DNA from: Folioceros fuciformis
Lineage: Eukaryota
Assembly: GCA_049999805.1 (NCBI GenBank)
Contig: JBNGIO010006161.1
Span: 62,001 to 126,000 of the forward strand
DNA: 64,000 nucleotides
Direction of reading: 5' to 3'
A program made the position numbers and the translations under genes. A model generated the notes under the pieces. The model did not search any database. It was given only the letters and a program-made list of their open reading frames with translations, and was not told the DNA's origin. Below, in pieces: positions 1,028-64,000 of the stretch (the stretch's first letter is position 1; every line of letters begins with the position of its first letter).

Positions 1028-1427
1028 GGCTAGCTCAGCTAGCTAGCTTTGGGCAACTGAACGAATGATCCCTTCAACAACTGCTCAAGCTCTGCACAGC
1101 ACCCATGGAGGAATCCACACCTCCTTCTCGTGGGCGGCAATGCGGTCATTCAATGCTTTCTCCATCTAGTGTTTAAACATGGGCCACATGACCGTTGCAG
1201 CTGGGAAAGAAACAGCCGTTGCAACAGAGGTTGTCGGACGGGGAACCTGCTCAGAAGCGGCAAGTTATGGCATGGCATGGACGCAGCATCGCATGGGATG
1301 TTAAGAGCGTGTAGGAGCAACTCGCACAGGAGCGTCCTTGCATCCGAAGAACCGCCATGCTTACCTCGAGGATTCCCGATGTGGGAGGAATGCTGGGATG
1401 TGATGCGGTCGTAGTCTTTACAAGAGG

Positions 1428-19662: not shown

Positions 19663-19873
19663 CGTTCTACTGGCTCGCCATGTTCGAAGATTACCAACGA
19701 GGATATGAATCGTGTATTGCCAGCAAAGATAGGCATTGCCGTGGTGAGGGAGCTGGTGGACTGTTGGCCCTATTCAGTAGCTGCCTTTGCCGGGCAGGGC
19801 CGTTGGATCTTGTTAATGACTGCGCTCGGAAAGTATTGCACTCCAGGCAGTGCTCACGGCCCTCCTGCCACCT

Positions 19874-32278: not shown

Positions 32279-32559
32279 TGCTTACTGTTGATTTTACGAT
32301 CATCGTTCGGCGGCCCACGCACCCATCAGGCAACTATACCCTGCTCCCCGTGGAGTTCACATGTATATAGTCTCGTGTACATATTCCTATTTCTGTCTCG
32401 ACGGAACTCCGTCGTCCTCCATAGTGGACTGTAATAGAAGTCTTCTTCATCCCCCTCTTCTGAATTCATGCGCAGTTGTTCCCAGGGTGTAGGAATGTAG
32501 GGCTTGTAGGTGACAGGTGGGCAGATCTAGAAGGGCCTGTTTGCTCGTCGACGTCCTTC

Positions 32560-35412
32560 ATGGGCCTTGCGGCTGAGGCTGCACCGGCCTTTGCCCGAGC
32601 TGGTTTACTGATAAAAACACCGAGCAAGCTGTTTCAAGAGGGATTAGGCAGGGTGCTGACTAGCCGTGATGCTCTTCAGGTTGCAACTTGGAAGATTGTT
32701 TGTGAGCAGGGTCGACTTCTGGAAGCCGTGGAAGCGTTGGACCCTGTTGTGCAGCAGGGATCGTATGTTCCAGATTCGATCTTCTACCAACTGCTCAGGG
32801 GGTGCATGATCAGGAAAGATCTGCTTGCTGGCAGGCGCCTTCATGCTCTGTCGGTTAAAAGCGGTCATGGCTGTAACACATTCTTGGCCAATCACATCAT
32901 TCGAATGTATGCGTCTCATGGAAGGTTGCAGGAAGCCTCAGAGGTTTTTTCCCAACTGGCAGCCCCGGATAGCTTCATGTGGTATTCTATTATTTCGGCA
33001 CATGCTGAATACGGTAAGCCTGGAGAAGCGTTGACACTGTATGGCGCGATGAGGCAGTCAGCTGTGAAGCCAAACGACTATATTTTTATGGCGGTGCTGA
33101 AAGCCTGTACAGCTGCCGCAGACGTAGAACTTGGCAAGCAGGTCCATTCTGATGTGTTAGGGACTGGGGCGGAGCCCAGTGTTTTGGTTGGCAACGGTCT
33201 GGTGGACTTGTATGTTAAGTGTGGGAGGTTGAAGGATGCTCGAGGTGTATTCGACAATATGTCTGTGAAGAATGTGGTGTCCTGGACTGCCATGATTGGA
33301 GGGTATGCTCAGCATGGTCAGGGTGAAGAGGCCCTTACTCTGTATTCATCTATGGTAGATGAGGGTCTGACTGAAGCGAATCAAGTCACCTTTGTGTGTT
33401 TATTGAAAGCATGTTCCAGTACCGGCGCTTTAGATAGAGGCAAGGAATTAGAGACGCAGATTCACGCAAGACAGCTGGAATCAGATCTAATACTTGGCAA
33501 CTGCCTGGTGGACATGTATGCAAAATGTGGGAGCATAAAGGATGCCCGCAGAGTGTTTGACCGATTGCCAACGAGAGACGTGGTCACGTGGAATACTTTG
33601 ATTGCTGGATATATTCAGCATGGGCTTGGTCAAGAAGGACTCAGTCTGTACCAACGAATGCAAGAAGAGGGCCTTACTCCAGATATTGTCACATTTGTGG
33701 CCCTTCTTAAAGCATGTGCCAGCTTTAGAGCTTTACATGAAGGCAAGGCAATTCATTCTCGGATCCAGGAACGTGGACTGGAAGGTGACTTGATTGTCAG
33801 CAGCAGCCTGGTGGATATGTATGCCAAGTGTGGGAGCTTGGAGGATGCTCGCAAAGTGTTTGATGATCTGGCCACCAAGGATGTGGTTGCATGGACTGCC
33901 ATGATCACAGGTTATGTCCAGCATGGCCTCTTTGAAGAGGCCCTTGATGTGTATAGAAACATGCAAACTGAGGGCATTACTCCAGCCAATCCTTTTACCT
34001 TTGTCTGCCTCCTGAAGGCATGTGCCATCAACAGATCGTTGCTGGAAGGCAAGCAGTTGTATAGGCAAATTCAGGAGCAAAGCTTGGACGCAGATGTGGT
34101 GGTTGGCAGCAGTCTTGTGGACATGTTCGCAAAATGCAGCAGCCTAGAAGAGGCTCGTGAAGTGTTCGACAGGTTGCCTAATAGAGATGTTGCGACCTGG
34201 AATGCCATGATCACAGGTTATGTTCATCATGGGCTCTATCAAGAAGCTCTGAATCTGCATGAAAACATGCAGCAGACGAGCAACATTCCAAGGAATAGCT
34301 CCATGTTTGTGTGTCTTTTGAGAGCATGTGCTGCACTTGGAGCGTTACAACAGGGAAAGCGGCTTCATTTGCATATTCAGGAATCAGGACTGTTAGCTGA
34401 CGAGCTTGTTGGCAGCAGCCTTGTGGACATGTATGCCAAGTGTGGCAGCTTGGAGGATGCCCGCACACTGCTGGACAGTTTGCCAACAAGGAATGTTGTG
34501 GCATGGACAGCTTTGCTGAATGGTTATGGTCAACACTGTGATGGCCAGGCGGCAATCCAGTGTTTCCAAGAGATGGAACAGCAGGGTGTTTCGCCTGACG
34601 ATGCTACATTTACCTGCCTACTTGTGGCATGCAGCCATCAGGGTATGGTTGATGAAGGTCAAAAGTATTTTAGAATGATGGTGGAAATTCATGGCATCAC
34701 TCCGTCTTTGTGTCACTATAATTGCATGGTTGATCTTCTCGGACGGGCAGGACATCTAGATGAAGCAGAGAATATGTTGCTGAAAATGCCGTTTGAAAGT
34801 GACCTTGTGGGCTGGACATCTTTGCTGAATTCCTGCAAGACTCATGGTGACGTTCAGCGGGGAAGGCGTTGCTTTGACAGGCTTGTACAGCTAAGCCCTC
34901 AGCACTCTGCTGCATATGTACTTTTGTCCAACATTTATGCAAATGCTAGTATGTGGAGTGAAGTGGAATCGGTAGAAAGTTTGAGGAGGTCTGTTGGTGC
35001 ATGTAAGAAGCCTGCAACTGCCTGGATTGAGCTCAACAGTAAAGTTCATGCCTTCTGCGTCGGGGAGGAAAGGGATGATGTAGCGTCCAAGCTACGGAGT
35101 GTAAATATGCTGCTCGAGGCTGGAAGTAACCTTGAGACACAGACAGAGTTGAGGTCAAAACTCGGGCCGGATCATGCAAGGCATGAGGATGCCTTGTGTG
35201 GACATGCTGAAAAGCTTGCTCTAGCATATGGTCTCCTGAATACTCCGGACGGCCAAACTCTTCTTGTCACCAAGAATCTTCGGATGTGCAATGACTGCCA
35301 CAGTGGAACCAAGATTATGTCCAGAGTTGAGAAGCGAGAGATCATAGTCAGAGATGCCCACCGCGTGCACCGTTTTGTGGATGGGTTTTGTTCTTGTGGT
35401 GATCAGGATTGA
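32560..35412 (+). CDS. PLS-PPR protein with complete DYW:KP-type deaminase-like domain (candidate U-to-C RNA editing factor)
   Basis: KKPATAWIE in place of the PG box, HAEKLALAYG, KNLRMCNDCH, and C-terminus HRFVDGFCSCGDQD. Intronless. Confidence 0.93.
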   Translation: MGLAAEAAPAFARAGLLIKTPSKLFQEGLGRVLTSRDALQVATWKIVCEQGRLLEAVEALDPVVQQGSYVPDSIFYQLLRGCMIRKDLLAGRRLHALSVKSGHGCNTFLANHIIRMYASHGRLQEASEVFSQLAAPDSFMWYSIISAHAEYGKPGEALTLYGAMRQSAVKPNDYIFMAVLKACTAAADVELGKQVHSDVLGTGAEPSVLVGNGLVDLYVKCGRLKDARGVFDNMSVKNVVSWTAMIGGYAQHGQGEEALTLYSSMVDEGLTEANQVTFVCLLKACSSTGALDRGKELETQIHARQLESDLILGNCLVDMYAKCGSIKDARRVFDRLPTRDVVTWNTLIAGYIQHGLGQEGLSLYQRMQEEGLTPDIVTFVALLKACASFRALHEGKAIHSRIQERGLEGDLIVSSSLVDMYAKCGSLEDARKVFDDLATKDVVAWTAMITGYVQHGLFEEALDVYRNMQTEGITPANPFTFVCLLKACAINRSLLEGKQLYRQIQEQSLDADVVVGSSLVDMFAKCSSLEEAREVFDRLPNRDVATWNAMITGYVHHGLYQEALNLHENMQQTSNIPRNSSMFVCLLRACAALGALQQGKRLHLHIQESGLLADELVGSSLVDMYAKCGSLEDARTLLDSLPTRNVVAWTALLNGYGQHCDGQAAIQCFQEMEQQGVSPDDATFTCLLVACSHQGMVDEGQKYFRMMVEIHGITPSLCHYNCMVDLLGRAGHLDEAENMLLKMPFESDLVGWTSLLNSCKTHGDVQRGRRCFDRLVQLSPQHSAAYVLLSNIYANASMWSEVESVESLRRSVGACKKPATAWIELNSKVHAFCVGEERDDVASKLRSVNMLLEAGSNLETQTELRSKLGPDHARHEDALCGHAEKLALAYGLLNTPDGQTLLVTKNLRMCNDCHSGTKIMSRVEKREIIVRDAHRVHRFVDGFCSCGDQD

Positions 35413-37175: not shown

Positions 37176-40100
37176 ATGCCGAACGTGGTGAATTCACATT
37201 CTGTGGAAGGGACGGATGTGCAAGTGGAGGAAGGAGCACGAGAAATGAAGATTAGAAACATCTGCATTTTAGCACACGTGGATCATGGCAAGACAACTTT
37301 GGCAGATCATCTGATTGCTGGGGCAGGGGGCGGAGTGATTCATGCAAAGATGGCTGGGAAGCTCAGGTTTTTGGATTATAGGGAGGATGAGCAATTGAGA
37401 GCCATCACCATGAAGAGTTCGGCCATCACTCTGCAGTACAAGGGCCACGCCATTAACCTAATTGACTCACCGGGACATGTTGATTTTTGTAGTGAAGTGT
37501 CAACAGCAGCCCGCCTTAGCGACGGGGCGTTGGTGCTGGTAGATGTGTGTGAGGGGGTGCACATACAAACGCATGCCGTTCTGCGGCAGGCGTGGATTGA
37601 GAAGGTCACACCGTGTTTGGTGCTCAACAAGGTTGATAGGTTGATAACGGAGGTGAAAATGACGCCTTCGGAGGCGTACGCACGTATGCAGGTAAAGTGC
37701 GATGATTCTTCACTTGGTTTCAAGAATGCAGTTTGAGATCTTGTGCTATACAGAGTAGTTTTCTTCCAGGCTCATGATCGTGCAACGCTGTTTTTGCAGA
37801 GCATTATTGGCGAGGTCAACAACATTATAAATGCTTTTCGTTCGGAGAAGTATATATCGGATGTGGACTCCATCCTGGCAGGACCCTCGTCCCCTTTGGA
37901 CGAAGGAGGGGGTCAGGGGGTGGAAGACGAGCCCGATGAAGAAGATGCTTTTGCTCCAGAGCAGGGAAATGTGGCGTTTGGCTGTGCACTCGATGGTTGG
38001 GCTTTTCAGATCGAACAATTTGCTGACCTGTACGCCACAAAACTGGGTGCAAGTATCAAGGCCTTGAAGAGAGCTTTGTGGGGGGATTACTACTATAATC
38101 CCAAAACGAAAAAGATTGTGGGCAAGAAGGCAGCAGCTGGAAAACTGAAACCCATGTTCGTCCAGTTTGTGCTCGAACCACTTTGGCAGGTCTATGATGT
38201 CGTTATGCAGGGGAGTAAAGGTACAGATATGCTGCAGAAAATTATAAAGTCCATGAGCTTGACAGTTCCTCCTCGTGAATTGGTGCACAAGGATTGTAAA
38301 GTAGTGCTTCAGGCAGTCATGAGTCGCTGGCTTCCCATAGTGGACGCTGTTTTGTCCATGGTGGTGGAGAAGTTGCCTGGTCCTGGCGTAGCGCAAGCTT
38401 ACCGAGCTGTTCGTTTGATGCCTACCCATTTGTACCCTACCGGAATCAGCACTGAGGTCCAAGAAAAGTTGGGGAGCGTGCGGAAGGCTGTTGAAGTATG
38501 TGATGACAGCAGTACTGCACCCTGTGTAGTTTACGTCTCCAAGATGTTTGCAGTTCCTACTGAGATGTTGCCACGCTCCAATCCTGAAGGGGAGGTTCTA
38601 ACCAATCTGGAAGATGAACTCGGGCTAGGTGACAGTGATGCTTCCCATCATGAGTGTTTCCTTGCATTTGCTAGAGTATTTAGTGGGGTTCTGCGTGCTG
38701 GTCAGAATGTTCTTATTCTCTCACCACTTTATGATCCCACTGCACCGAAGTTGGATACCGATTCTCTGCAAGAAGCTACTGTTCAGGCCCTCTACATGAT
38801 GATGGGAAGCGGTCTGGAGCCGAAAGCTTCCGCCTCTGCTGGTAATGTGGTTGCATTGAGGGGCCTCGGGCAGCACATCCTGAAAACTGCAACTTTATCC
38901 ACCACTCCTTATTGCTGGCCTTTTCAGAGTATGGACTTTCAGGCGGCTCCGATTGTCCGGGTTGCTCTAGAGCCAAAGAACCCAGCAGACATGGGTGCTC
39001 TTGCAAGAGGCTTAAAGCTCCTTAACAAGGCAGACCCATTTGTTGAAGTATCTGTATCTGGGAATGGTGAACATGTTCTTGCAACAGCTGGGGAAGTCCA
39101 CCTAGAGAGGTGTATCAAGGATTTGAGAGAGCGTTTCGCAAGGGTTGAACTGGAAGTGTCGCCACCCTTGGTGGCATTTCGAGAAACCATAGAGCCTGGT
39201 AGTGAGGACTCTCAGCAGTGTGGTCAGATGGGTTTGGAATATGTTGAAACAACTACGCCAAACAAGAGGTGTACGGTTCGTGTATACCTTGAAAGGTTGC
39301 CAGCCTCTATTTTGAAGGTTCTAGATGATAATCAAGAACTCCTGAAAGATATTATTGAGGGTCGTCCCATCTCCAGTTACAGGAAAAAAACTTGGATTGA
39401 CAAGCAAGGCGATGCTAAAGAGGATCCAGTTGCAACTTTGAAAGCTAACCTTTTGGCTGCTGCGTCTGGTGAAGATTCCTCTGGGGCAAACAAAAATTCA
39501 TATTGGCTTAAACGACTTGAGAGAATATGGGCCTTGGGGCCCAGACAAATGGGACCCAATCTTCTTCTCACTCCTGTTGGGAGGAAGGTAAGCCAGCAGA
39601 GCAATTCAGAAGAGCCTGAAGTCGACATGCAGTGTGTGAGAGGCTCTCCGCAGATGTCCAGGAAACTGGGCCTCGCTGAAGGTAGCTACGCTTCGACGGT
39701 CGCCGAGGGTCTAGCCGGGGATTCTCTGTCTCTTGAATCAGGATTAGAGGGTAGTGTAACAGCTGGTTTTCAGCTGGCAACAGCTCAAGGCCCTCTGTGC
39801 GAGGAGCCCACGTGGGGTATGGTCTTCACGGTCGAAGCATTCGTGTCCAAAGCTAAGGGTGATGCTGAAAATGGGGAGGGTGCTGACTCTGCTGCAGATG
39901 CTGGAGGAGGCAATGTTGCTGATCAGTACGGGCCGTTTTCTGGACAGGTTATGACTGCTGTGAAGGATGCTTGCCGAGCAGCTATGCTTGCACGAAATCC
40001 CAGAATTGCTGAAGCCATGTACTTTGTGGAGGTCAGTACAGGTCCGGAACATCTAGGCCAGGTGTACGCTGTTCTAGGCCGAAGGCGAGCTCGTGTTCTG

Positions 40101-40433
40101 AAAGAGGAGATGCAAGAAGGCACAGCTGTGTTTCTAGTCCATGCTTACATGCCTGTCGCTGAAAGCTTTGGATTTGCGGATGAGCTGCGTAGGAAGACTT
40201 CAGGTGCTGCTAGCCCCTTATTAGTCCTGAGTCACTGGGAAGCTTTACTCCAAGACCCTTTCTTCGTTCCCAAGACAGAGGAGGAATTAGAGGAGTTTGG
40301 CGATGGGTCGAATATCCCACCCAATACTGCAAGGAAGCTTATTGACGGTGTGAGGCGACGCAAAGGCCTGGCGGTGGAGGAAAAGGTTGTCCAGTTTGCA
40401 ACAAAACAGAGGACTAGAGCAAGAAAAGTCTGA
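37176..40433 (+). CDS. EFL1: Elongation factor-like GTPase 1 (EFL1/RIA1), 2 exons (37176-37691, 37800-40433)
   Basis: [64 protein letters not shown]. Confidence 0.96.
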
Positions 40434-41879: not shown

Positions 41880-43671
41880 TCAAAAACTACCTACTGCTCC
41901 CAAAATATCATGATGTGGAATAACAAAAGGCCTACCTACCATCGGTGCCGAAGAAGCCACTTGACCTGCACTTGTTGCTGTTCTCAAAACTGCATTGGCC
42001 AATGCTCGTTGCAAATCAATGGATACACGTTGTCGAAAGAAGGCCACCACAGAGAAAAGAGGGAGAACACCATTCCTATTGTTCTGATAAACCTTGGCGC
42101 ACTCCTTGATAAACCTTGAAAAGTTCTTGCCCATAGCCCCATGAGTCTCAAGAGCAAAGAGGGATGAAAGTATGCCCATCTTGCAAGGGAGAATACTTAT
42201 GGAGTTTGGCACTTGCACAACCCTTTGTTGCCCAACCAAGGGGGTTGATGATGACATGCTCAGAAATCGAATCCCTAGTGGGATCCGTAACAACCACATT
42301 AGCGACACAAACCTATTCTCCCCTAGTGAAGAAAAGGTCGGTGTTAAGTGAAACGTCATTGCGCAAAGTATAGGGATGCTCCCTATAGGGAAGAAACCCA
42401 CACTCCCTAGCCATTGAGAATATGACATCTCAAACTACATCCTGAGTGGCAATGCGGTGCCCCCCAACGGGACAACGTGCCAAGTGGGACTTTATATCGA
42501 CAATTGCAACCCCACAACCGCATGAAGAGAGAGAAAAAGCCAAGGAGTGGACTAAACCTAAGCGAAATCTCATCGCGGTGGCGAAAGTTGCTAGGGCGAT
42601 TCGAAATGCCTAAATGCAAAGTCGAGCTAAAAGCCAAGAGCTCGCTCCTTTACCTGAACAAGATCGAATACGAGCTCGAGAAGACTTAGGGATGGATGAA
42701 TTTGAAAGAAGGGCTCTTAGTGCTTGGCCATATTGCTTTCCTAGGAGGGAGGCTTGGAGACCCTTNNNNNNNNNNNNNNNNNNNNNNNNNNNNNNNNNNN
42801 NNNNNNNNNNNNNNNNNNNNNNNNNNNNNNNNNNNNNNNNNNNNNNNNNNNNNNNNNNNNNNNNNNNNNNNNNNNNNNNNNNNNNNNNNNNNNNNNNNNN
42901 NNNNNNNNNNNNNNNNNNNNNNNNNNNNNNNNNNNNNNNNNNNNNNNNNNNNNNNNNNNNNNNNNNNNNNNNNNNNNNNNNNNNNNNNNNNNNNNNNNNN
43001 NNNNNNNNNNNNNNNNNNNNNNNNNNNNNNNNNNNNNNNNNNNNNNNNNNNNNNNNNNNNNNNNNNNNNNNNNNNNNNNNNNNNNNNNNNNNNNNNNNNN
43101 NNNNNNNNNNNNNNNNNNNNNNNNNNNNNNNNNNNNNNNNNNNNNNNNNNNNNNNNNNNNNNNNNTAAAAGACCAACAAAGACAACTGGGGCAAAGGCCT
43201 CCATGGCTAAAAGACCAACCCCTTCAAAGGCGATTGGCAAAGAAACCTGCTTCCAAGCCAAATCATCGACAGCACACTCGAAGGTGCCCGGACCTATGAT
43301 GTTCCCAAGAGTCTGCATAACTTGATTGTCAAACTTCCTGAGACTTGATAAGAAAAATGGAGAAGGCGCAACAGTTCTAGTGAGGTAACCTGGTCGCCGT
43401 GCAAAACAAACGCAATCTAAGGATCACCGATTTGTGAGAGGTCTATGATATGAGCCAAATCTTCATCCAATGCTTCATCCACAAACCTATACCAAATCTT
43501 CNNNNNNNNNNCCAAATCTTCATCCAATGCTTCATCCACAAACCTATACCAAATCTTCATCCACTGCTTCATCCACAAACCTATAAACAAAATCAGGAGG
43601 TCCCATAGGCATACCTAAGACTCGAAGTCCCTGCGAGGGAGTAATATCCCCAAATATTGAAGGGGGGAGTG
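41880..43671 (-). mobile_element. Decayed, 5'-truncated non-LTR retrotransposon with restriction-like endonuclease (CRE-clade-like)
   Basis: Minus-strand translation: GLRVLGMPMGPPDFV (RT end), QVSLPIAFEGVGL (thumb), ARIRSCSGKGASSWL, MRFRLGL, SCGC...HLARC (zinc knuckle), TDL...NVVVTDP...KLHKY...FALETHG...FFRQRVSIDLQRA. It has in-frame stops and a frameshift, and spans two N gaps. Confidence 0.8.
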
Positions 43672-43692
43672 AACCCTAAACCCTAAACCCTA
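43672..43692. repeat. Telomeric repeat (AAACCCT) x3 at the retroelement 5' junction
   Basis: aaccctaaaccctaaacccta. Confidence 0.85.
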
Positions 43693-43729
43693 CCCATCAT
43701 CAAACAACCTTATGAGTCTCCTGTCATGC

Positions 43730-43878
43730 CTACAAATCTATTGTGCTATGAAACATCCAACAACACTCAGTTATGACCAGTTACTTTGAGGTTACAACCC
43801 AATGTTTCTCAACTACAAATCTATTGTGCTATGAAACATCCAACAACTTATGATCAGTTACGACCCAATGTTTCTCAA
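43730..43878. repeat. Imperfect direct duplication
   Basis: ctacaaatctattgtgctatgaaacatccaacaac occurs twice, each time followed by ttatga(c/t)cagtta...acccaatgtttctcaa. Confidence 0.75.
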
Positions 43879-43939
43879 AACAATGCGCAACACCGAAGGC
43901 TTTGTAGCGTTGACAACAATGGACTCATTCAAGTATCAT

Positions 43940-46900
43940 CTAGTTTTGATCTATCATGCCCTGCAACTGAGCAACAATGGAAAAGCGATGGGCATATCCG
44001 GACCCGTAATGAGAAATCAAGATTTCTTTCACGATATCTAAGCTCTCTTTAGCACATTTTGTGTCTGTGAGAGCCAATGCGATTGAAACAAGCTTGAGTC
44101 GCTCACTGGCAAGAGTTATATGTGAGCAATTGTAAAGGAGCTCCAAAATCTGCAAAAAGCTCAAAAGACCATTAATCCTGAACTTCAACTGTAATACGGC
44201 ACATAGTCTAGCAAGATTTTGTGAACTGGGTTTGAAAAGTAGGCTTTTCGATTTGGAAGATTTTATACCTTGATGGAAGCTAGACAATGAGGCATGGCAG
44301 CTCCAGGATTGCCCATCACACAGTACGATTTTGCTAAAATGTCGTGTGCCTGGAGGTAATGCAGGTTGGCATCAGAATGTTGCATGAATTTCACTCCAGT
44401 GAGAGGGGAGAGAGAACCCGGAGGGAAATGGACAACCACATCGGACTCACCTTTGCAAGTTGTTTGTTGCAAGGATGTACGAGGACCTGTAGCTGTTTTA
44501 AAGATTCCAGAGCACTTTGCTCATGAACTGCAAATTCTGCTTGTTCCAAATTGGTATCCAGTAGTTTCTCCAATCTGCTCACACGGAAGTGATGCCAGTA
44601 CAGGATGTAGTAGTTGCCACTGAGGGAAGAGACTACAGTGGGTACGGGAGAGAGCAAACCTGAGAACCACTTGGAAGTGTTTCCTTGCCAGACCGTAAAT
44701 CCTATTTCGGTCCACCAGTAACGTGCAACTGAGGCATCGAAATGGATGGTCATTCCATTCCGAACCCACGTCATCAACATCAGGGCCAATAACTACTCCA
44801 GAGCATCCAGGTTTGGGGCACAGCACAGCATTAATGACTGTGTCGGAAAAATTTGAGGTAGAGCAAGCTATGCAAGTACAAGTGAAGGAGTAGCGCTCCT
44901 TCAGCCACTTTTGTCTCGTTGATCTCGTCATTTCACCCACCTGCTAGACCAGCCACTGCATTAGGATCCCATCTATCTGCCATACATCTGTGTGACATAT
45001 TTCAAGAATTCAGGCATTGCTCCACACCTGTGCCCCATAACAAATTTCCAGCTCAGTAAATGCTCGGATGCTCTTAGTGGCGTGGATGAAGAGACAGCAC
45101 GAAGTGAAAGAGGCGTGACAATTGGGATCACAGGAATGGTTCAGCATGCTTCCCTTGAGATAAACTGCCTGGGCTATATTGTTCTGTATCACACACACAC
45201 ACACATAAGACACTCGAATAGGAAACAAGTTCTCAAAGATGAGATGGGAGCCGTTACCTGGTCAACAGTGCAAACGGCACTCCTGGCTGCATCCACATCG
45301 CTGCTGGTCGATGTGACTTCATTGATGGCTATCGAGTTGGCTCGCAGTTGAGCCATTATCAGGATAAGCTAGAAACGATTTTAACTGTACGTCAGTAGCA
45401 AGATTTCTAGCGTGAGGACTGATGATCTAAACGTCCCCACACTTTGCTCAGTTGTTACGACTTACTTCAACGGATATGTCTGCTGTGGTGCCTGTGATCA
45501 TGCGAGACGAGGGGCAGTGTTGCAAACAATGAGCAAGAACCGTAGACAGTACGTGCATCTCCAATTTCTCTGAAGAGAGCACTTTATCGAATTGATGGCA
45601 CAAGTTTCTTGGCTGCAGACAATCAACCACACAAAACTGTTAAGTCACATCGACGCCCAAGCTGCAGCTCGGTGAGAAGGGGGATGAAATAGTGATGCAC
45701 CTATCTGCAACAAGAAACCTATATCCAGGGACTTATTGAGTTAGCTGAATATGAGACACCTCTGGCATATGCTGCCTTGCTGCTTTCCACTCTCAAGGCT
45801 TGCCTATCTGTTCCACCCTGCACATCCGTAGGCTGCACATAATCTAAATGCCGTGACCTCATATAAACTCTGGCAGCCAATACAGCTTCAATAGGCAGCA
45901 CTGCAGCCCAGCTTGCACCTCCACATTCATGCCTGTGTTGACCATAACGTGCTTTCTTGATTGCAACTTCAACTCTGTGAGCAGTCTTTTCTGACAAGGG
46001 TTCGTCAATACTACAGGAGCCACTTGAGAGGCAAGAATCCCCTTGGATCCTGGCAGTCCAATTGCTATTGGTTGCATAATCTATGTCTTCCTCTGTCCAA
46101 GAGGTCCCCGCTGCACTGTCACGGCATGTCTCAGAACAGTACACACTGACAGTGCAGCCGTCACATGCCACTTCACCTACTGGCAACTTCTCGAAGCAGA
46201 AGTGACAATAAGTGTCCCGATGCAATTTCAGCAGCACCTGCAGATGATGCTGAGTGGATCAGATAAATCGTGAATTGGCTTGCAGGACAATTCGTTCCCT
46301 GGAAAGCCTAGAGACTTACAGCAGCATAAGGGTCTTCCGTCACAATCAAGCTTCCAGGAATAAGGTCTTCTGTAGTCCTCAGACCAACACCTCTGTCTGC
46401 TGTCCACATCGTTTCTGCAAGGCTGGGACAGACTTGGCGGATTTCTCTGGCATCTGTTTAGAGCAAGAGTCAGTGGCTATCAAATAACCTCAACCTAGAT
46501 CATTGATGCTGCAAAACTTGTGATGTAGAAACTCTACCCACAAACCTGCACCACTCTTCATGCCGAGCAGAGCTTCTCCACATGTCTGGTGCCTTTTCTG
46601 AAGCGATTTAAGCTGTTTCTCAGCTTGTTTCCTGCCACCGATTGAGCTCTCTAGGGCCAAGGCCTTTTCCATGTCAGAGATCGCCTCTTGGATCCTTCCT
46701 TGCTCTGACCTGACCAGGCTTCTCCTGTACCAAGCCTTCACACAGCCATTGAAACTCATTTATGACAATTGATCAACAGATTTGCCTCCCATATAGTCAC
46801 CAGCTGTGCCGACAATACACTGTTTTTTCAGACATTTCGAAATGGACGACCGATACCTTGGAGTACGAGGCCCAAAGCTTAACAGCACGACTGCAGTCCC

Positions 46901-54102: not shown

Positions 54103-57100
54103 TCATGACCACACCCCACGGTATTCCTTGAATGTATGTGGAATAGGAGACCAAATTGCAACCTCGCCTTCGGTCACCGTTCGTAGCCGGGGCTTCCATA
54201 ACCTGCACCTATTCCTGCGGAAGGCCGGCAGCTTTGGTAGTTGATACGCAGTATTTTGCTTGCTATCACCTGCAAGTTTTTTCCTGTTGTGCCTACCGCC
54301 GGCGCCCGCATTTTCATCTTCGTTCAGTATGGGGGTCTCGCCGCCATCCGTGGACGTCGGGGTCGGTACAACAGCATCGCTCACCACTGTCGCGGATGAT
54401 TCAATTGTCTTGACGACAGACACCTCTGTTGAAACGCGAACAACCTCTGGTTCCCGAGCTGGAGAGCGCATTTTCAAATGATCTCGAAGCTTCAGACGAG
54501 GGGGCCTGCCTGGTGACCTCTGTGTCGGCCTCTCCAACTCAACCACAGGAGTGTTGCTGGCCTCACAATCAATTTTTCTTGCTGGCAACGACTTTCCCCA
54601 GGACCCTTCAAGACTAATGACGGGGGCTTGACCCATGTTGTAGCCCCACTGAGCTCGGGCTATGCCATTGCTCATGCATGTGGCCAACTCCGGTTTCAGT
54701 CTTCTCCGCTCCAGACAAGCTTGCTCCTCCGGGAGCAGAAAGGGATCCAAACGTATCTCAAACAAATCTGGTGAGCATTCCACAGGCACTCTTGAGATAC
54801 AGTTCTCCAAACTCATCTTAACTTCCTGTTTCCGCTTCTCAGGGGACCACACATCCAACGGTTCGAACAAATACTGCTGGTTATCCTCAAGGATCAGGTC
54901 CTGTAGAGATTTGCTCTCACGGACAGGCTCAACAACAAGGTCCTGCAGTGTTTTGAAATCACGAACAGGCTCGAAGATGTAGTCCTGCAGTCTTTTACCA
55001 TCACGGGTAGGCCATGCTGAGAAACCACGGTGAGCTTTCCAAGTTGGCAAAGAAAGCTCAAAACTACAGTCTCGTTGAACGTCCTGTTCATGCACACCAT
55101 CTCCGTGCGTACGGTCCCTGCCTAGCCCATGGGTCTGTTGATTCACTGCTGGGGACATGAAATAACCAGGAAACCGCTCCTCTGGCAATGGTGCCACGCT
55201 ACTCTCTAACCTGGAAGATGCATCGTCCATAACAGAATCCAGTAAGCTATCGCTTGACGGTCGGGTCAACGAAGTCACCTTCACAGAATCCACCCTTGTA
55301 GTAATCGCCTGCGGACTTAGCGGTGGAACACCAAACTTGCCTGACATCAAGATCTGTGAATTTTGCGAGAGCGTCTCAAACAACTCGATCTTTGATCTTA
55401 CAAAAGATGAGTAATGAAAGAGATCCTCGTCAAACCCATAATTCCCAAGCGGGCTTGAGCCTTGGCCAGTTACGCCTGCCGTGTTGGTGGGCCCATGCAA
55501 TGCATCACCCTGTACCAGATAGTTTTGCTCACTGCTTTCCCATCCGTTCTCTTCTTGCAGCCATTGCTCCATCTCCTCATCTCCAGACACACGTAAGCCA
55601 TCCTTCACCTCGTTGATAGATACTGTTACCCCCTTCGTCACCTACAACAAACAAGGCCACGGCATTAGCTCACCACGGCGACTGGACGGACCATAGTTCT
55701 TCTACTCCTCGCTACAGCTTCCCATCGGCCAATTCGAGAGTTGAGAAGCTTCCTCAGACACAACTAGGCATATCGTCATAACAAGCTCAGCAGAAGCATG
55801 GTGAAGATTCTCGTCGGACGTTGGGCCAATGTCATGGACAAGGAAACAGCCGCCAGAGGTGGCGAAGGAGGGAGAGGGGAGACGGACAATGAGCGACTCT
55901 AGCCAATTCGTACTAGTCTGCTCAGAAATTGGAACAGTTTATCTTCACCAGTCTCCGAAGAACTCCGATCCGCTATAACGAAAGAATATTTGGAGTCATC
56001 ACTGCAGACGGACACTAGTTGCCGTTGATCAGGCTCTCGAAAGACAACAAGAACTCAGTGCGAATCCGCTGACTTCCACAGGACTTCTCCTTAACTTTAG
56101 CTAGATAGACCAGCGGTGCGTAGATTGAAAATAGGAACAACATCCGCCAAACCTGTTCGTTAGCACGTGCATTCTTGAAAGCCTGCGCATAGCAACATTC
56201 CAGTCTCGCAGATTGCGGATTCCCGTCTCTCCCACGCACGGATACTTGGCCGACACAGCCCACTCCCGACATCTGCAAAGGATCTCCCCCTTCACACGTC
56301 TGGCCTTGGCAATCACCGACCGGATACACCTTGCTCATAAAAGAGCCTTTAGAACCAGCCACTCCCGGCGACGGAAGCTCTGCACACTGACATACCATGC
56401 CACGCTCGTCGTCAACGGACTGTTCATCCCTCGACACCTCAACTCCTGTCTCCACCTCCATATCAAGCTGACACCTTCGAACACATATCCCTGTAGTCTT
56501 ACCTCCACAAGAAGCACGCTGCTACTCTGATCCGCAGGTGCGCTGCTTTCCCTCCCTCCCTTCCCCGGGAACTCTTTCTTCCTACCATCCGGACGGCCAC
56601 AGCCAGCGAGCTTCCCTCCAACTTTCGGCGACGGTCTCCTCCTCGCAACAACGGCCTCATCCACCCGCCCCCGCTGCTTCCCCTGCAACCGGCTGCTGCG
56701 GCTCGGAGTCCTCCCTCCCGCGCCCCGTCGAGGTGAGTATCGGAGCCTCGGACTCCCCCGAACCTTGGGACTCCCAACACAAGAAGCTCTCGCCTTGTGC
56801 CATTTCGGAACAGCGGCCTCCCGCTTCCCGTCCCTCTCCTTCCCAGCCGCTCCCGCGCCAGATCTCGCACCTTTCCCAGCCCCAGCCACAGCCACAGCCA
56901 AGGCACCGGGCCTGCACTCCCGCATAGCCTTGGGGCACACCGATTCCGATACCGACTCATCCGCAGCGCTGCTCTTCACCCTACTCCTCTTCGTCAGCAT
57001 CGGGGGAACCCCCATCCCGTACTTCCGCCGCAAGCTCGCCACCGTCCGATAAGGCAACAGCAGCACCTTCCGCCCCGGCATCAACAGCACCTCAGGAGCA

Positions 57101-57279
57101 AGGACGGCGGGCTTGCTGGACTGAAAGATATCCGGCAAAGCCACAAAATGGCGAGGATTCCGCCTCATCACCTCATCCACCGTCACGGTGTGGTAGTACC
57201 GCTCTACACGCCCTCCTCGATGCACGACTTTCACCGCCGGCGGCAAGGTGGCCGCGGACCTGGATCCACTCTGTCCCAT
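54103..57279 (-). CDS. PADRE/DUF4228 protein with a long disordered insert; apparent frame break near 56500; intron about 55642-56151
   Basis: MGQSGS, VKVVHRGGRVERYYHTVTVDEVMRRNPRHFV...LMPGRKVLLLP at the N-terminus and WKPRLRTVTE near the C-terminus. The NEQ|VTK junction is a phase-0 splice. Confidence 0.6.
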
Positions 57280-58265
57280 TCCTCTTGCTCGTCCCTGCCT
57301 CCTCCTCCTCCTCAGGCAACCATGCCCGGGCTTCCGCTTCTCCTTTTGCTACTGCTCCTCGCAGCCAGCGGTGGCATCTGCCTGGTGCGGACCCGGCCTG
57401 GGAGTGAGGATCCAAGGAGAAGAGGAGGCAGGAAGGCGTCCGCCTCCTCCCGCTCCTCCTCGCACGCATCACCGCTTCCCGCTGGCAGCTCCGGCCGCGC
57501 TAGGGACGGTGGCCACCGCGGGCCATGGCCATATTCCATGTGCGTGGCAGGGCTTGTCGGGATGTCCCGCCCTCACAGCCAGCGCCTCGCATCTCCCGAT
57601 GCCTTTGAACTCTTCTCCCCGTGGCCCCGACACAGCCATCTCCCCCTTGTTTGGCCGTTTCCACGCATCGGCCTTGGGCCACGAGCTCGGCCACTGGTGG
57701 GCCTGCCAACCAGAAGTCTCCAGCCTCTGATAATCCCCGATATCCTTTGTACAGGCCTGTAGATATTTTTATGGTTCCATATCCTGCCCACCTCATCACC
57801 AGAAGCACGCAAGCGCAAGCCTCCCACAACCAAATTGTCATGAACGACTAGACTTTAATAAGGGTTTTAAACCTTTTGCTCAAAAGGATTTTGTCGGAAC
57901 CTCGCACCCTGGGTGGTGAGGGTATGGGTCCGACTCCTCCCCCCTCCATACACTCCTGACTATGAGTAATAGATGTACAAATTTTTATTTTCTAAGCAAA
58001 GGCCCACAGATATGGGTGTGGGCAGGTTTGGGAGGGAGGGAGACCTGGGTGCTTTGCTGTTCGGTCTGCAGACTGCTGACATTCCACAGGGGTGGGACTC
58101 TTGGGTAGTGAAGAACGGGTGCCTTAATGAACCAGTTAACGTTGGCTGTGTTGGCACGTTATGTTACCAAACTGGATGGCAACAGGATGACAGTTGCAAT
58201 AAGCTTTACACATAAGTATGCACAGGTCTTCAACAATACAACACCTGCCTCTCCCAAGTGCATCC

Positions 58266-61020
58266 TTATTGCCCTTGAATACGACAGAGAGAGCAGCCGA
58301 GGCATGACTCTTCGCCATTTGGGGCATGCTCGATCAGCAAAGGGCAGTGCTTAGGGCCTTTACATTTAATAATTCCCTGCTTCAGATCGATACCTCTCTC
58401 TCTCGTACGGTGACAAGCGTTACAAAAGTGAGTGGTTCCATAGCAAAAAAAAGTAGCCACGGAACAGCAATACCTGCACTTGTACTCCATATAATCAGTG
58501 CCATGGTTTGCTACCTTACATTTCCCCTTGCCAACAAGGGCAGCAGAACAGCCGCCACACATAAGCTCGCTTGGATTATAACCGCTTCCCCTGCACAGTC
58601 AGACACCATCAGCACAAACTTGCCAGCAAGTTCAGAATATCTTGAACCCATCCAAAGAAACTCATGTGCTTTGCTCAGCACATACCGTTCGTTTCTCGCT
58701 CTGCAGTCGCGCATACCACCAAAATACGGTTCCTTACACTTGTAGCAGACGTAATACTGGTAATTCTTCATGGCATCAGTGACCGACTTCTCGGCTCCTT
58801 CTGCGCTCGCCTTGCCTGCCCTCGATTGCTCTGCCTTCAACTTTAAAAGCTTTGATGAAGCTTTGCTCTTGCGCCGCCCTTCTTCCGTTCGCTCAAGCCT
58901 GAGCCTCTCTCCTAACTTTTGACTGACCTGCACAGCCATATGTCTGAAGCTCAGGATCTCTTTGCATCATGTGACCAGGTATTTGCTTCACCGAGAACGT
59001 GAACAGGAACATCCGGGATAACAAGCCCCACCTGCAATCTTAGTTGCTCATGCTTCCACGAGTGAGGCTGCAAACTTGGATGTTCCATGGCTTGTGAACA
59101 TTGTGGACACTCAAGGAAACCGAAGCTGATTTCGGGGCCTGGAAACCCCTCATCAATCTTCCTCTTTGCACATTGTGAGTGCACCACATGTCCACAGGTC
59201 AGGAGTATGGCAGGTGCTCGCCTAATAGGATCCACCATACATACAGCACACAAGTCGTCCCCAGATGTCAAGACCTTCTGACCAGCACATGGATTTGAGT
59301 GACAGCCATCCTGTTGAAGGTCGGAAAAATACGTCCCATCAGGTGTCGGACATGCAAAAGAGTGTACAAAAGAGTCGTGGATCCGCATACTCACCTCTAG
59401 ACAGGGAAGGCAGGTACGTTCTGCTCGAACTCCTCCACAGCGATGCCCACATTCCAATATCCGAGAGCATGAAAGCTTCAGCATCTTCCGACAGTCTTTT
59501 CCAGAGCAAACAGCAGAAGCAATATTCTGCACCTTCACTAGTTCTGTCTTCTCCACGCACCAGGCAATATCCACGTCACTCCTTTCCAGCTCGTCCCTAA
59601 GGTGTTTAACAGACATGGACTCCAGCTTACGGATTCTCAGACTCTCAGAACTAGAAGAACGAACAATTCCCTCACAAAAGATGCACTTCACAGCTGACAT
59701 CTCCTCCTCATACTGCTCACAGGTCTTCCCCTCGTGGTAGGGCTTTCTTAAACATTTGCCACAAAAATCAACTGTGCACATAGGGCAACGAAACCGATTT
59801 ACAGCCTTGTGACGCAAGGCAACTTTAGAAAGGTGAATCCCACCGTTGTCTGGAGCCTGAGTTTGAGGCAACTCGCCAGCAACCTTCTCTATAAAGATTC
59901 CACATCCTGGGCAGTGTACAAAAGAGGTACTCCGGTCCAGAAATTCTCTACTGGCCTTGTCCTCCCATTTCCCGAAAGCCTCAGGAGCTACACTCTGTGC
60001 GTCTAAGAGGTTCAAACTACCACCACAGCCAGGAGTGGGGCATGTTATCCATTCGAAGGCAGCAGAGCTGGAAGATGCTTCTGCATGTTGTCCATTGGCA
60101 CCAGAAGCTGTAGCTCCAGATCGTGAAGATTGGTTGGAATCACTTCCGCAAGCGCTTTCCAGAGTGGCAACAATATGTTGCCGTAAACAAGGAACACAGC
60201 AGAGACACGTACAACTCAGCGTGGCGCCAATCAAAGCGATCGATAAACTCTGGCGACAATGATCACATGTAAATTCTGCATCCGCCATCTCTTCATCCGA
60301 TAGATAGACGACTTCCGGAAGCTTGTCACCATCCTGCAAAGTGATGACTTCCGGAAGCTTTTCATCATCCTGCAAAGTGATGACTTCCGGAAGCTTGTCA
60401 TCATCCTGCAAAGCGATGCCTTCCGGAAGGTTTTCACGACGTTGAGATGATTCTGGAAGCCCTCCATCATGCAGAGATGATTCCGGAAGCTCTCCATCAC
60501 GTGAAGGTCTTCCCCCCACCTCGTCCTTCGCATTCGCAAGCTCTTCATTACGTAAGAGTATGACCCCCGCTTCCGCCTGACCGTAATGACGCTTACGATT
60601 CACGCCCACTGCGCCTGCGGAATCTGAAGGTGGTGAATCGACTCGGTCCGGATGCAAACGTACATCCTTCCAGCCCGAAGACGGCATGCGCAAGGTGGAG
60701 AGAGAGCTCTGTGTGGCGCATTCCCTATCAGGCCGACTGCAGAGAGACCCCATCTCACACCCGGTATAAGAATCCACTTCACCTACCCCTTCTGCATTTG
60801 AAGACAGTCTACCTGTGTCAGAGGAACAGGAGCCAAAGCTCGTACCCCCGGCCCTGGGAGGGGCATCAGCTAAAAAGAACCCGGTGGCAGTGTCTCCATC
60901 CTCATCCTCGTACTCATCCCTCACAAACGTCAGCTGCGAACGTACGCTCTTCTTGTAGACCTCACTCGGATGCTGCAATTGTTGAACTACAGCTTCACCT
61001 TGAAGGTAAAGCCAGTCCAT
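58266..61020 (-). CDS. RING-IBR plus MYCBP2-type RING-Cys-Relay (RCR) E3 ubiquitin ligase, at least 4 exons
   Basis: CGHRCGGV...CLPCL, RING CAVC..APAILLTCGHVVHSQC..GPEISFGFLECPQC, YYVCYKCKEPYFGGMRDC, YNPSELMCGGC, HGTDYMEYKCRYCCSVATFFCYGTTHFCNACH, CPL..HAPNGEE.CLGCSLCR, all collinear with the MYCBP2/Highwire/RPM-1 C-terminus. Extra 5' exons are possible. Confidence 0.88.
60290..60500 (-). repeat. Coding tandem repeats (30-36 bp units) encoding LPEVITLQDDEK-type motifs
   Basis: LPESSLHDGG, LPESSQRREN, LPEGIALQDDDK, LPEVITLQDDEK, LPEVITLQDGDK, LPEVVYLSDEE. Confidence 0.85.
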
Positions 61021-61799
61021 GAGATCCACAACAAACGAATAGCATGTTCAAAATACAGTGTCTTCCCTTTGACCTCTTCCACTCAAACAGATGCTGCTTT
61101 CCATACTCTCCCTAAGCTACTAGGTTTCCCGCTAACACGGCCATAAACGGAAGTTCCCTACTCCAGCTTCCTGCAGGTTCGGGTTCTTGCTGGTGCTTGC
61201 CTGCTCGAATTATCGTAAACTTTCGGCTCCGTGATGCTCTTCGCATACTGGTGACCAAATGCAGCTAACCTCCACTCCAATCCCCGAATTCGGCTCCCAA
61301 GCTCAACAATTCCAAGCCCTAGATGCCGCTATTACACATTCTCGGCCAGTTGACACAACATAAGAAAACTGAAGTGATCCTCCTCATGAGATGCAATCAG
61401 CGAAAATGGCAACATGCAAGACAGGCGGGCTGAGGCTACTGCATCGCCACAGTAGGAGAAGGAGGATTCTACATACGTCCGCTGAGGACGGATTTTCCCG
61501 TCATGTCGACTTGGTACCTGGTTCACATCGTCGCGCCTACTAATTCGGAGGGTGGTTCCCAAGCGTGGGATAAGACCGCGTCAGTCGGTCTAAAAACTCC
61601 TCCTACCAATTTGAAGTGCGTTTCCGGGCGGTACTTAGGGCCGCAACACATGTACTGGAAAAATCTTCCTGTCCTGTAACAAGCGAAAATGAGCGGCTAC
61701 GGCATCTTCCATCGTCTCTCACGATCCAAGTTCGTCTCAACGGGAATTCACCCAGGCAACTCTAATTTGTGCGTCTCTTGAAAAGAACAACAGTGAGGG

Positions 61800-62145
61800 G
61801 GGATTCCCTTGTGGCGCCACGAGTTATGGTCTCACGGGCGCTTAAGCGCAGAGCACACACACATCTTGGGGTGCCATATCTTTGCCCCCGTTTGCATGTG
61901 AAGGGAATATAGGAGTGGCCATGAAAGTGTTCACAGATTGGTGAACGGAGCCAAATGCCTTCATGTGGTGTACACATGTCACGCATGTGCGAAGCATGGG
62001 AGATCTAATGAGGTCATGCAACTGCACCAAGTTCCTTGCGATGTGGATACAGTTCAAGTGTTCGTAACTGACCTTGAAGCTTGCGCACTGGCTGTCTACT
62101 TGTAGTCTGACAGAAGAGTGCACTTTGACCTGCTGGACAGTAGTA
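61800..62145 (+). pseudogene. Second degenerate N-terminal PLS-PPR fragment
   Basis: Broken frames give AMKVFTDW*TEPNAFMW, AKHGRSNEVMQLH and VFVTDLEACA...*SDRRVH, matching the first PPR units (AMDVF..PDAFMW, HG..ALELY, VFVAALQACA). Confidence 0.6.
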
Positions 62146-62465
62146 GTGGTAATCCTCTTGGCTTAACTTGGCTTGTATCTTTGCTTCTGCCAGGTGGATG
62201 GCAAGCAACTTGAAGTAAAGTGACGATGCTCAGCTGGGCCATGTGTCCAGCAAAGGCTCGGACTGTGCATGTTCAGCTTGCAATTGGCTGCAAGAAAGTA
62301 GTGACCTGGACGGAGCTGATTAGTCATGCACGCATGCCCAGCAGCGACTCGGCCAAGAGTGTGTGTTACGTGTGGAGAGATCAAGATGAAGACGTTTACT
62401 TCTCTTACAATTTTGGACTTTTTTTCTTGGGGGAGGGAAGTTGGGCCAGAACAATAGTCTACAGT

Positions 62466-64000
62466 TCACATAGACTTCTGTTCTTGTCTTTGCATACGGC
62501 AGAGAGAACAACCAAGGCATGCCTCCTGGCCATTTGGGGCATGGACCAAGCCCAAGGGACAAGAATCAGGGCCTGGACAACTCCTCATATACGTCTTGGG
62601 ATCCATGCACTTTTCTCTAAGAAGGTGACAATCACTACAGTAATGGACAGCTCCACGGCAAAAACGAGTAGCCACGGAGCAGCAATACCTGCACTTGAAT
62701 TCGATGTAATCAGTTCCATGGCCTTTTACCCTGCATCGGTCATGGCCGGTTGCTGCAGCAAAGCAGTGGGTACACTTGAGCTCGCGCAGATCATAATCGG
62801 CCCCCCTGCACAGTCAAAGTTGAATAGTACCAGTGCAAGCTCTCAAACGACTTCACCACCAGAAGATCTGAATCAAACAAGAAGAGAGACCTGCAAGCAA
62901 ACAAAGTACGTACCCTTCGTCTACCGCCCTGCAGTTCCGAACACCACCAAAATATGGCTTTGCGCACTGAGAGCACAAGTAATGATGATACGTCTTCATG
63001 ACATCAGTCACCAACTCCTCGCCTATTTCTACCTGAAGGCCGTTGTCATCCGACTTTCCTCGCTTCCCCTTCGTCATGAACTCCATCGTGAGCTGCTCCT
63101 TTACCATCTCCTTGATCTGAACAGCCAAACGTTTCAAACTGAGCTCTCCGTGCATGACAGATGAACGAGTATTGCCAATCCCCAAGAGCGAGGCATGCAT
63201 GCGCGTCTGGAAATACCCGCCCTCGCAGCGTCTCGTGTCCCTTCACAAAAGGTTCCAACGCGGGATGCCTCATGACTTGCAGACAGACCGGACAGTCGAG
63301 GAAACCGAAACTGATTTCGGGGCCCGGATATCCCAGTTTTATCTTCAGCTTCGAACAATGGAAGTGCACGATATGCCCGCAAGCCAGCAGTATAGCAGGT
63401 GCTTGCCTGACGGGATTCAGCATACATATCGCACAGAGCTCGTCCCCGGACGTGAAGAACTTCTGCGCCGCGCACGGATCTGAGAAGCGACAGCCATCCT
63501 ATGAGGAAGGAAAGCTGTCAGATACAGTTGTCCGCCATACCTACCTACCACAGCACTGCACTGCACTGTACTGCACTGCACTTTGGCAACGCAAAAAATC
63601 GTCACCCGGGTTACCGCAATCAAATCACCTCTAGACAAGGCAGGCAGGAACGCTCCCCGCGAACTCCTCGGCATCGATGCCCGCATCCCAAATTCCGTGC
63701 ACATGTCAGCTTCAACAGCTCCCTGCACTCCGATTCCGAGCACACAGCCGCAGCAAGATTCAGAACCTGCAAAAAGTCCCTCCTTTGCCCACACCAGGAG
63801 ATATCCATGCCGATAGTCAAAAGCTTGCGCTTAAGCTCCCACAGCGACATGGCTTCCAATTCTTTCAGCCTCTGACTCTCAGCACGGGAAGAACGAACAA
63901 TTAGCTCACAGAAGAGGCACTTGATGTCTGATATCTCCTCTGGGAGCCTGTCAGATCTAGGCTCACACTCGGGCTGCTCGCCAATTCCCCCGACACCGTC
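62466..64000 (-). CDS. Second RCR-type E3 ligase paralog; 5' end lies beyond the window
   Basis: Same exon layout and motifs: CLFC, CGHRCRGV, CAIC..APAILLACGHIVHFHC, YFGGVRNC, YDLRELKCTHC, KCRYCCSVATRFCRGAVHYCSDCH, HAPNGQEACLGCSLCR. Confidence 0.85.

Follow-up and report, generated by a model that had tools for sequence, protein, structure and literature searches.

A transcribed land-plant gene for a compact RING-Cys-Relay-type ubiquitin ligase and its tandem paralog in Folioceros fuciformis

Two tandem genes in the Folioceros window

We analyzed a 64,000-nucleotide stretch of DNA from Folioceros fuciformis (GenBank assembly GCA_049999805.1, contig JBNGIO010006161.1, positions 62,001 to 126,000 of the forward strand), referred to here as the window. 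A gene on its minus strand (copy 1) encodes a ubiquitin ligase (E3) of the RING-Cys-Relay (RCR) type, the type of MYCBP2 (PHR1/Highwire/RPM-1), and a tandem paralog (copy 2) lies beside it. The original prediction, made from the sequence letters, had placed a complete module of this type at 58266-59700. The motifs and the module do lie there, and the same range also holds an 84-nt in-frame intron (59311-59394) that is spliced out. The RING1-IBR N-terminal half of the protein, the tandem paralog, and the spread of the family across eukaryotes are features beyond that prediction. We consider it likely that the window holds a real, transcribed land-plant RCR-type E3 of 823 amino acids (aa) with a putative ubiquitin relay, together with a diverged tandem paralog, and that both descend vertically within the green lineage.

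The coding sequence (CDS) of copy 1 runs from 61020 to 58266 on the minus strand in four exons that form a single open reading frame (ORF) of 823 aa, with the stop codon at 58266-58268. The exons (61020-59395, 59310-59032, 58927-58686, and 58590-58266) were delimited by RNA contig joints and intron ends. Contigs of public run X3 skip four stretches that begin and end with CT..AC on the plus strand and are thus GT..AG introns of the minus strand; because of these skipped introns, we treated X3, which had been labeled "RNA?" by guess, as RNA. The joints in copy 1 were shifted within the reported alignment ambiguity, whereupon all four introns were canonical. The window is matched collinearly by DNA contigs from run X1. 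All coding exons of copy 1 are spanned by an RNA contig with three GT..AG joints. Transcripts that drop the exons with the catalytic cysteines had been named in advance as counterevidence, and the spliced RNA contig keeps all catalytic exons.

At the 5' end, the first coding exon includes untranslated sequence (61021-61328; RNA contig 60367-61328, joined to 61477), and ahead of it lies a 148-nt GT..AG intron of the 5' untranslated region (UTR) at 61329-61476, defined by an RNA joint. Since this same transcribed exon (to 61328) contains stops in frame with, and upstream of, the ATG, copy 1 has no hidden giant N terminus. CDS exon 1 (59395-61020; ATG at 61020-61018) encodes an acidic motif, 12-aa repeats, a RING1-like finger, an IBR, a helical region, and a zinc finger. 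The repeats correspond to a 36-bp tandem repeat at 60310-60437 (minus strand, 3.6 copies according to TRF [Tandem Repeats Finder]), which encodes three acidic 12-aa units at residues 198-233. Contigs of the public runs, DNA and RNA alike, break at 60359-60367 in this repeat region.

Intron 1 (59311-59394) is in frame and stop-free and has GT..AG ends at an RNA joint; its removal restores collinearity with homologs. Its retention would separate the zinc finger from the RING by a further 28 residues, and the one RNA contig seen is the spliced form. CDS exon 2 (59032-59310) encodes the RING domain of the RCR module (C563-C613), and CDS exon 3 (58686-58927) encodes the charged linker helix and the start of the tandem-cysteine domain, including C710 of the mediator loop. 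Between these two exons lies intron 2 (58928-59031; 104 nt, GT..AG, RNA joint). Intron 3 (58591-58685; 95 nt, GT..AG, RNA joint) falls between the upstream Cys and the Glu, so that most of the tandem-cysteine domain, its C-terminal part with E724, C765, and H776, is encoded by CDS exon 4 (58266-58590). The 3' UTR (57894-58265) is covered by an X3 RNA contig that extends from 57894 through the stop codon. All these features are on the minus strand. Copy 1 is a real, expressed land-plant gene for an RCR-type ligase.

Copy 2 (62466-64000, minus strand; RNA contigs, sequence, and tree) continues with its 5' part beyond the window end. Between the two copies, X3 cover is missing in parts of 61623-62273. 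Copy 2 contains the zinc finger, the RING, and the tandem-cysteine domain, with both cysteines, the Glu at +14, and the His all present. It has the same exon structure as copy 1: RNA contigs with two joints define introns at 62806-62913 and 63117-63216, and a third, at 63499-63628, was placed from the sequence. Inside this third intron, a short GTGCA-rich repeat (63553-63582) has very high contig depth in both runs and is probably a dispersed simple repeat. The two copies differ at 185 of 392 aligned codons, with a ratio of nonsynonymous to synonymous divergence (dN/dS) of 0.36 and dS near 1. They are sisters in our tree (support, 99), where the branch of copy 2 is the longer (0.84 versus 0.27). 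Copy 2 is an old duplicate that is transcribed, under purifying selection, and faster evolving than copy 1.

The RCR module and the N-terminal half

Copy 1 had been predicted to be collinear with the C terminus of MYCBP2, and both sequence and structure comparisons bear this out. The motif GGMRDC lies in the minus-strand frame 58511-58966, and FFCYGTT and CNACH lie in the frame 58266-58598. With exon 4 alone as a phmmer query against all PDB chains, the MYCBP2 structures 6T7F (E = 7.9e-28) and 5O6C (E = 8e-28) were retrieved, and the next match was at E = 0.4. Exon 3 matched 5O6C at chain positions 120-146, the stretch with the first Cys (E = 1.9e-5). The Pfam RING matches of exon 2 were weak and below the curated cutoffs (zf-RING_5, 1.8e-4; zf-RING_2, 1.8e-3), and this RING retains every conserved Cys/His column. 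The C-terminal ~320 residues of copy 1 are thus homologous to the MYCBP2 catalytic module, with zinc finger, RING, linker helix, and tandem-cysteine domain in collinear order. In the Foldseek alignment, exon 4 is 52% identical to MYCBP2.

Because introns split the module in the window, we folded an ortholog in place of the window protein: LOC9631788 of Selaginella moellendorffii (P0016), which is 41% identical to the copy 1 protein. Its AlphaFold2 (AF2) model, built from a 100-row alignment, had a mean predicted local distance difference test (pLDDT) score of 81.9 and a predicted template modeling (pTM) score of 0.69, with pLDDT falling to about 72 at the mediator-loop Cys. A Foldseek search with this model ranked 5O6C (E = 2.3e-19; TM score, 0.71 on the target) and 6T7F first, and the superposition called for in the original prediction was obtained with VIA-align (Z = 17.1 for 6T7F and 16.3 for 5O6C, over 236-237 residues). 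Residues 438/446-687 of the model align to MYCBP2 4379/4387-4638, and the superposition on 6T7F, from 4387, takes in the RING. The whole P0016 module is 38% identical to MYCBP2. An AF2 model of window exon 4 alone (107 aa; pLDDT, 83.7) had 6T7F/5O6C as its sole significant Foldseek matches (E = 6e-8; next, 1.3). Its root mean square deviation (rmsd) from the MYCBP2 structures is high (11.4 Å) because the first ~20 residues, lacking the rest of the domain, are low-confidence.

Both relay cysteines and the His of CNACH, claimed from the motifs, are present in the spliced product. In copy 1 the predicted relay residues are C710 (58703-58705), E724 (58566-58568), C765 (58443-58445), and H776 (58410-58412), which align to 5O6C chain positions 143, 157, 195, and 206. 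With the entry numbering of 5O6C (4379-4638), these become MYCBP2 positions 4520, 4534, 4572, and 4583, so the numbers C4520, E4534, C4572, and H4583, given in the prediction, proved right. In MYCBP2, a Cys-His-Glu triad has been described (PMC9527308, section 13), and C4520S is reported as a catalytically inactive mutant in another study (PMC12664034). E724 does lie exactly 14 residues after C710, across intron 3, as had been noted. This spacing is no constant of the family: it ranged from 9 to 58 among 234 aligned modules, with 14 as the mode (51/234), and thus is not diagnostic. The Glu itself was found in 170 of the 234 modules and Asp in 41.

The conservation of the other three residues bears on another explanation, namely, that the protein is an ordinary RING E3 in which E2, the ubiquitin-conjugating enzyme, transfers ubiquitin directly to lysine and the tandem-cysteine domain is a purely structural zinc module. 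RING domains alone can suffice as E3s. Against this, 233 of 234 aligned modules have the upstream cysteine, 234 of 234 the downstream one, and 234 of 234 the His, although neither cysteine is a zinc ligand in MYCBP2; such strict conservation is hard to explain without catalysis. We therefore regard an ordinary RING mechanism as very improbable. Both window copies retain 33 of 33 conserved Cys/His columns.

Upstream of the RCR module, exon 1 encodes an IBR domain recognized by Pfam (E = 3.2e-8; 34 bits versus a cutoff of 24.3). The landmarks in copy 1 are a RING1-like finger from C252, the IBR at C370-C434, and a zinc finger before the RING from C505. Residues 94-331 of the P0016 model aligned by VIA-align to the RING1-IBR of RNF216, ARIH2, HOIL-1, HOIP, and parkin (Z, 5 to 8.4), and the RING finger of UbcM4-interacting protein 4 (PDB 1WIM) gave a Z score of 10.0. 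The aligned chain ranges of the RING-between-RING (RBR) ligases end before RING2 (parkin, 233-378; HOIP, 697-851). No RING2/Rcat equivalent was found after the IBR, either as a Pfam Rcat match or in the structural list, where absence is not proof. A phmmer search of PDB with exon 1 gave nothing meaningful; the best match (E = 0.19) was to a CPTPGC-type zinc knuckle. Based on the Pfam IBR match and the structural alignments that end before RING2, the layout of copy 1 runs from an acidic N-terminal motif through a spacer to RING1 and IBR, and on through a helical region to the zinc finger, RING, linker helix, and tandem-cysteine domain.

To see this N-terminal region in relatives, a local hidden Markov model (HMM) of the plant region was applied to 264 collected homologs. 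The region was common to 163 of them and its IBR part to 121, but these are not natural frequencies because the set is biased by the short-family profile and the length window of 350-1115 aa used to collect it. None of the 21 named animal proteins had the RING1-IBR region by the same HMM. A conserved motif at the N terminus (60850-61000, minus strand; residues ~5-60) combines an acidic run with a short hydrophobic stretch after it. It was found in 24 of the 264 homologs, many of them rows of the green branch of the tree, and has moderate pLDDT (~70) in the P0016 model.

RBR and RCR ligases are both transthiolating E3s. Copy 1 resembles the RBR ligases (parkin, ARIH1/2, HOIP, HOIL-1, and RNF216) in having RING1 and IBR, by Pfam and by structure, and differs from them in that an RCR module stands after the IBR, where no RING2/Rcat was found. 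This architecture raises the question of whether the protein is an RBR-RCR hybrid in which the RING1-IBR, and not (or not only) the C-terminal RING, recruits the ubiquitin-charged E2, with the tandem-cysteine domain replacing RING2. The structural alignments of RBR ligases over residues 94-331, stopping short of RING2, favor such a hybrid, as does the occurrence of the N-terminal region in most of the collected homologs and in none of the named animals. However, Z scores of 5 to 8 are only moderate, and no zinc ligand is missing from the C-terminal RING, whose placement matches that in 6T7F, where the RING binds E2. We consider recruitment through the RING1-IBR unlikely, and the C-terminal RING the better candidate for E2 binding.

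Relatives, phylogeny, and neighboring genes

A profile of three full-length relatives, searched against 1.84 billion representatives, yielded 2468 proteins with E ≤ 1e-3, of which 525 reached E ≤ 1e-30. A length below 2000 aa was seen for 141 of the best 150 of these 2468 matches, some of them surely fragments. In a named search, 133 proteins passed and names were listed for 120. Land-plant proteins among the matches listed came from Adiantum, Ceratopteris, Ceratodon, and Selaginella, with no name beyond "hypothetical" or "uncharacterized," and further green relatives were Closterium and Bryopsis. Protists among the matches listed were Polysphondylium, Balamuthia, Thecamonas, Palpitomonas, Andalucia, and Paratrimastix, and there were many animals too. 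The relatives thus take in green algae, amoebae, apusozoans, jakobids, and metamonads, and several had been auto-named MYCBP2, highwire, or RCR-type E3 by JGI, NCBI, or UniRef. Among the matches listed (120 of 133), there was no seed-plant protein. An Atlas search gave leads below 0.9 except for one ciliate cluster at 0.90. The supposition that the compact enzyme belongs to one lineage was therefore too narrow, with orthologs in two ferns, a moss, and Selaginella and relatives in algae and protists.

A tree had been proposed as a check on the prediction. We built it from 65 rows chosen from 234 complete modules, using the quick mode of IQ-TREE with support values from the Shimodaira-Hasegawa-like approximate likelihood ratio test (SH-aLRT). 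The window copies group with Selaginella, two ferns, and one moss in a clade of 12 rows (support, 98). Closterium and Bryopsis share a larger branch with this land-plant clade (support, 94), and the animal proteins stand apart in a clade of their own (support, 97). The placement fits vertical inheritance of copy 1 within the green lineage, as judged from the aligned sequences.

The four deposited plant orthologs, none of which carries a functional name, are LOC9631788 (P0016) of Selaginella moellendorffii, KP509_12G090100 (P0164) of Ceratopteris richardii, GOP47_0001568 (P0163) of Adiantum capillus-veneris, and KC19_2G009400 (P0165) of Ceratodon purpureus. They share the full architecture of copy 1, with 39-46% identity over about 430-630 aligned residues. 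The window protein differs from them in its longer, repeat-bearing N-terminal spacer (~60-250) and in its tandem duplicate.

MYCBP2 is a 0.5-MDa animal protein and a giant axon regulator. While copy 1 has the relay cysteines, Glu, and His of MYCBP2, it is 823 aa long, compared with 4382-4673 aa for the animal representatives, and its RING1-IBR is absent from all 21 named animal homologs, which form a clade apart from it. The prediction of a compact protein without RCC1, PHR, or DOC domains held: Pfam finds IBR and RING in copy 1 and no RCC1, PHR, or DOC/APC10, and the upstream stops close the frame. The giant PHR proteins (>3000 aa, with RCC1-like, PHR, DOC/APC10, and F-box-binding regions) are thus a group to which copy 1 does not belong. 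Short RCR proteins of protists and bivalves share the same module and catalytic residues, and several have an IBR (for instance, Balamuthia P0044 and Polysphondylium P0216). Unlike copy 1, some of the protist proteins have a C2 domain and those of bivalves a macro domain, and they belong to different clades. Combinations seen were a short RCR protein with a macro domain in bivalves (P0006, P0008, and P0009) and a short RCR protein with C2 and IBR in EukProt/JGI eukaryote records (P0189, P0053, P0204, and P0047). It seems that the RCR module has been reused widely as a cassette. Short IBR-RCR proteins such as copy 1 make up an old and widespread family; the same module forms a branch of its own in the giant animal MYCBP2.

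The rest of the window is land-plant DNA. It contains four long, intron-poor ORFs with PPR repeats, at 1404-4991, 19820-22843, and 32464-35412 on the plus strand and at 10410-11996 on the minus strand. The first three are PLS-type with an E motif, one of these with a DYW deaminase domain; the minus-strand ORF has PPR repeats only. Several long PPR ORFs are typical of plants with heavy organellar RNA editing. Immediately downstream of copy 1, in a GC-rich stretch (0.59), lies an ORF with a PADRE domain (56335-57348, minus strand), and an ORF with EFL1/EF-G-like GTPase domains is at 37737-40433 (plus strand). The region 42000-44000 has low GC content (0.36); at 42610-43423, both of its strands carry many open frames that overlap.

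These neighbors bear on the suspicion that copy 1 is an artifact: a contaminant from an animal, a gene recently acquired by horizontal transfer, or a dead pseudogene. That suspicion arises because animals supply the best-known homologs. However, plant-specific genes flank copy 1 on the same contig, its short GT..AG introns are spliced from transcripts, its frame is intact and under purifying selection (as the dN/dS between the copies indicates), and the tree groups both copies with land plants and not with animals. In particular, the PPR-DYW and PADRE neighbors and a land-plant clade apart from the animals argue against contamination or animal transfer. We rejected all three forms of this explanation, which is almost certainly wrong.

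Proposed mechanism and significance

Because the plant module is homologous to that of MYCBP2, a relay of the MYCBP2 kind (PMC9527308, section 13) can be proposed as the likely mechanism of the plant protein. The C-terminal RING would bind ubiquitin-charged E2, from which ubiquitin would pass as a thioester to C710 of the mediator loop, predicted to be flexible. Ubiquitin would then be relayed intramolecularly from C710 to the downstream C765, and the C765-H776-E724 triad would discharge it onto a nucleophile of the substrate, most likely a Ser/Thr hydroxyl, to form an ester. The original prediction likewise supposed a non-lysine ubiquitination system. The RING1-IBR would probably act as a second element that binds E2~ubiquitin or ubiquitin and has a regulatory role.

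The plant module may depart from its animal counterpart in its acceptor. The threonine selectivity of MYCBP2 has been attributed to a hydrophobic pocket that accommodates the threonine methyl group (PMC9527308, section 13). Copy 1 has Tyr, Phe, and Arg, and copy 2 has Arg, Tyr, and Arg, opposite MYCBP2 4573, 4578, and 4586. We take F4573, F4578, and F4586 to be the pocket residues of MYCBP2. Opposite F4586, Selaginella has Trp and the animal proteins checked have Phe, a residue found there in only 69 of the 234 modules.

One can therefore imagine the same two-cysteine relay serving another acceptor chemistry (lysine, serine over threonine, or a nonprotein hydroxyl) through a pocket remodeled in plants. 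The substitutions at 4586 and 4573 and the role ascribed to the hydrophobic pocket speak for this possibility, while the retention in copy 1 of the triad and of the F4578 equivalent speaks against it, as does the provisional assignment of the pocket residues. We consider such a shift in chemistry a doubtful alternative, though less so than recruitment of E2 by the RING1-IBR, and continue to favor discharge onto a Ser/Thr hydroxyl.

It is important to note several points that weigh against our interpretation of copy 1 as a relay ligase of the MYCBP2 kind. Opposite F4586, copy 1 has Arg, as do 10 of the 12 rows that make up the land-plant clade, and opposite 4573 the residue is Tyr in the first copy and Arg in the second; judging from these residues, selectivity for Thr, or for hydroxyls generally, may differ, and the acceptor preference of the plant module may not be that of MYCBP2. 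The full-module fold comes from a model of the ortholog and not of the window protein, whose own model covers exon 4, with its first ~20 residues predicted at low confidence. The RNA nature of X3 rests on its intron-skipping joints, the label having been a guess. Moreover, the tree was made by a quick method, with SH-aLRT support only, from 65 hand-chosen rows of 234. Finally, biochemical data on any non-animal RCR member were not found in the literature.

The reviews we found present MYCBP2 as the example of the RCR class (including PMC9527308). Among the reviews and other papers reached by our literature searches, none deals with an RCR ligase of a plant or protist, in agreement with the earlier statement that no characterized plant RCR ligase was known; the orthologs are deposited as "hypothetical." The enzyme class is thus known, whereas the combination of RING1-IBR with RCR seems to be a new architectural variant, in a family that is deposited yet seemingly unstudied outside animals.

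The lack of a seed-plant match among those listed points to a possible lineage-specific loss. A broader view, which we consider less likely than not, is that the RCR is not an animal invention but the catalytic end of an ancient eukaryotic ligase class. Its members would have RING1-IBR, zinc finger, RING, and tandem-cysteine domain in this order, with the RBR-type front end cooperating with a two-cysteine relay; non-seed land plants may use it for ester ubiquitination of Ser/Thr or other hydroxyls, and seed plants may have lost it. An 823-aa plant enzyme with a complete relay would be a small and tractable model of the relay and of ester ubiquitination, and it would be evidence for oxyester ubiquitination machinery in plants. 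If this is true, base-labile ubiquitin linkages in the proteomes of bryophytes, lycophytes, and ferns deserve attention. Further, a natural fusion of RBR and RCR parts could reveal how the transthiolating E3 classes relate to one another.

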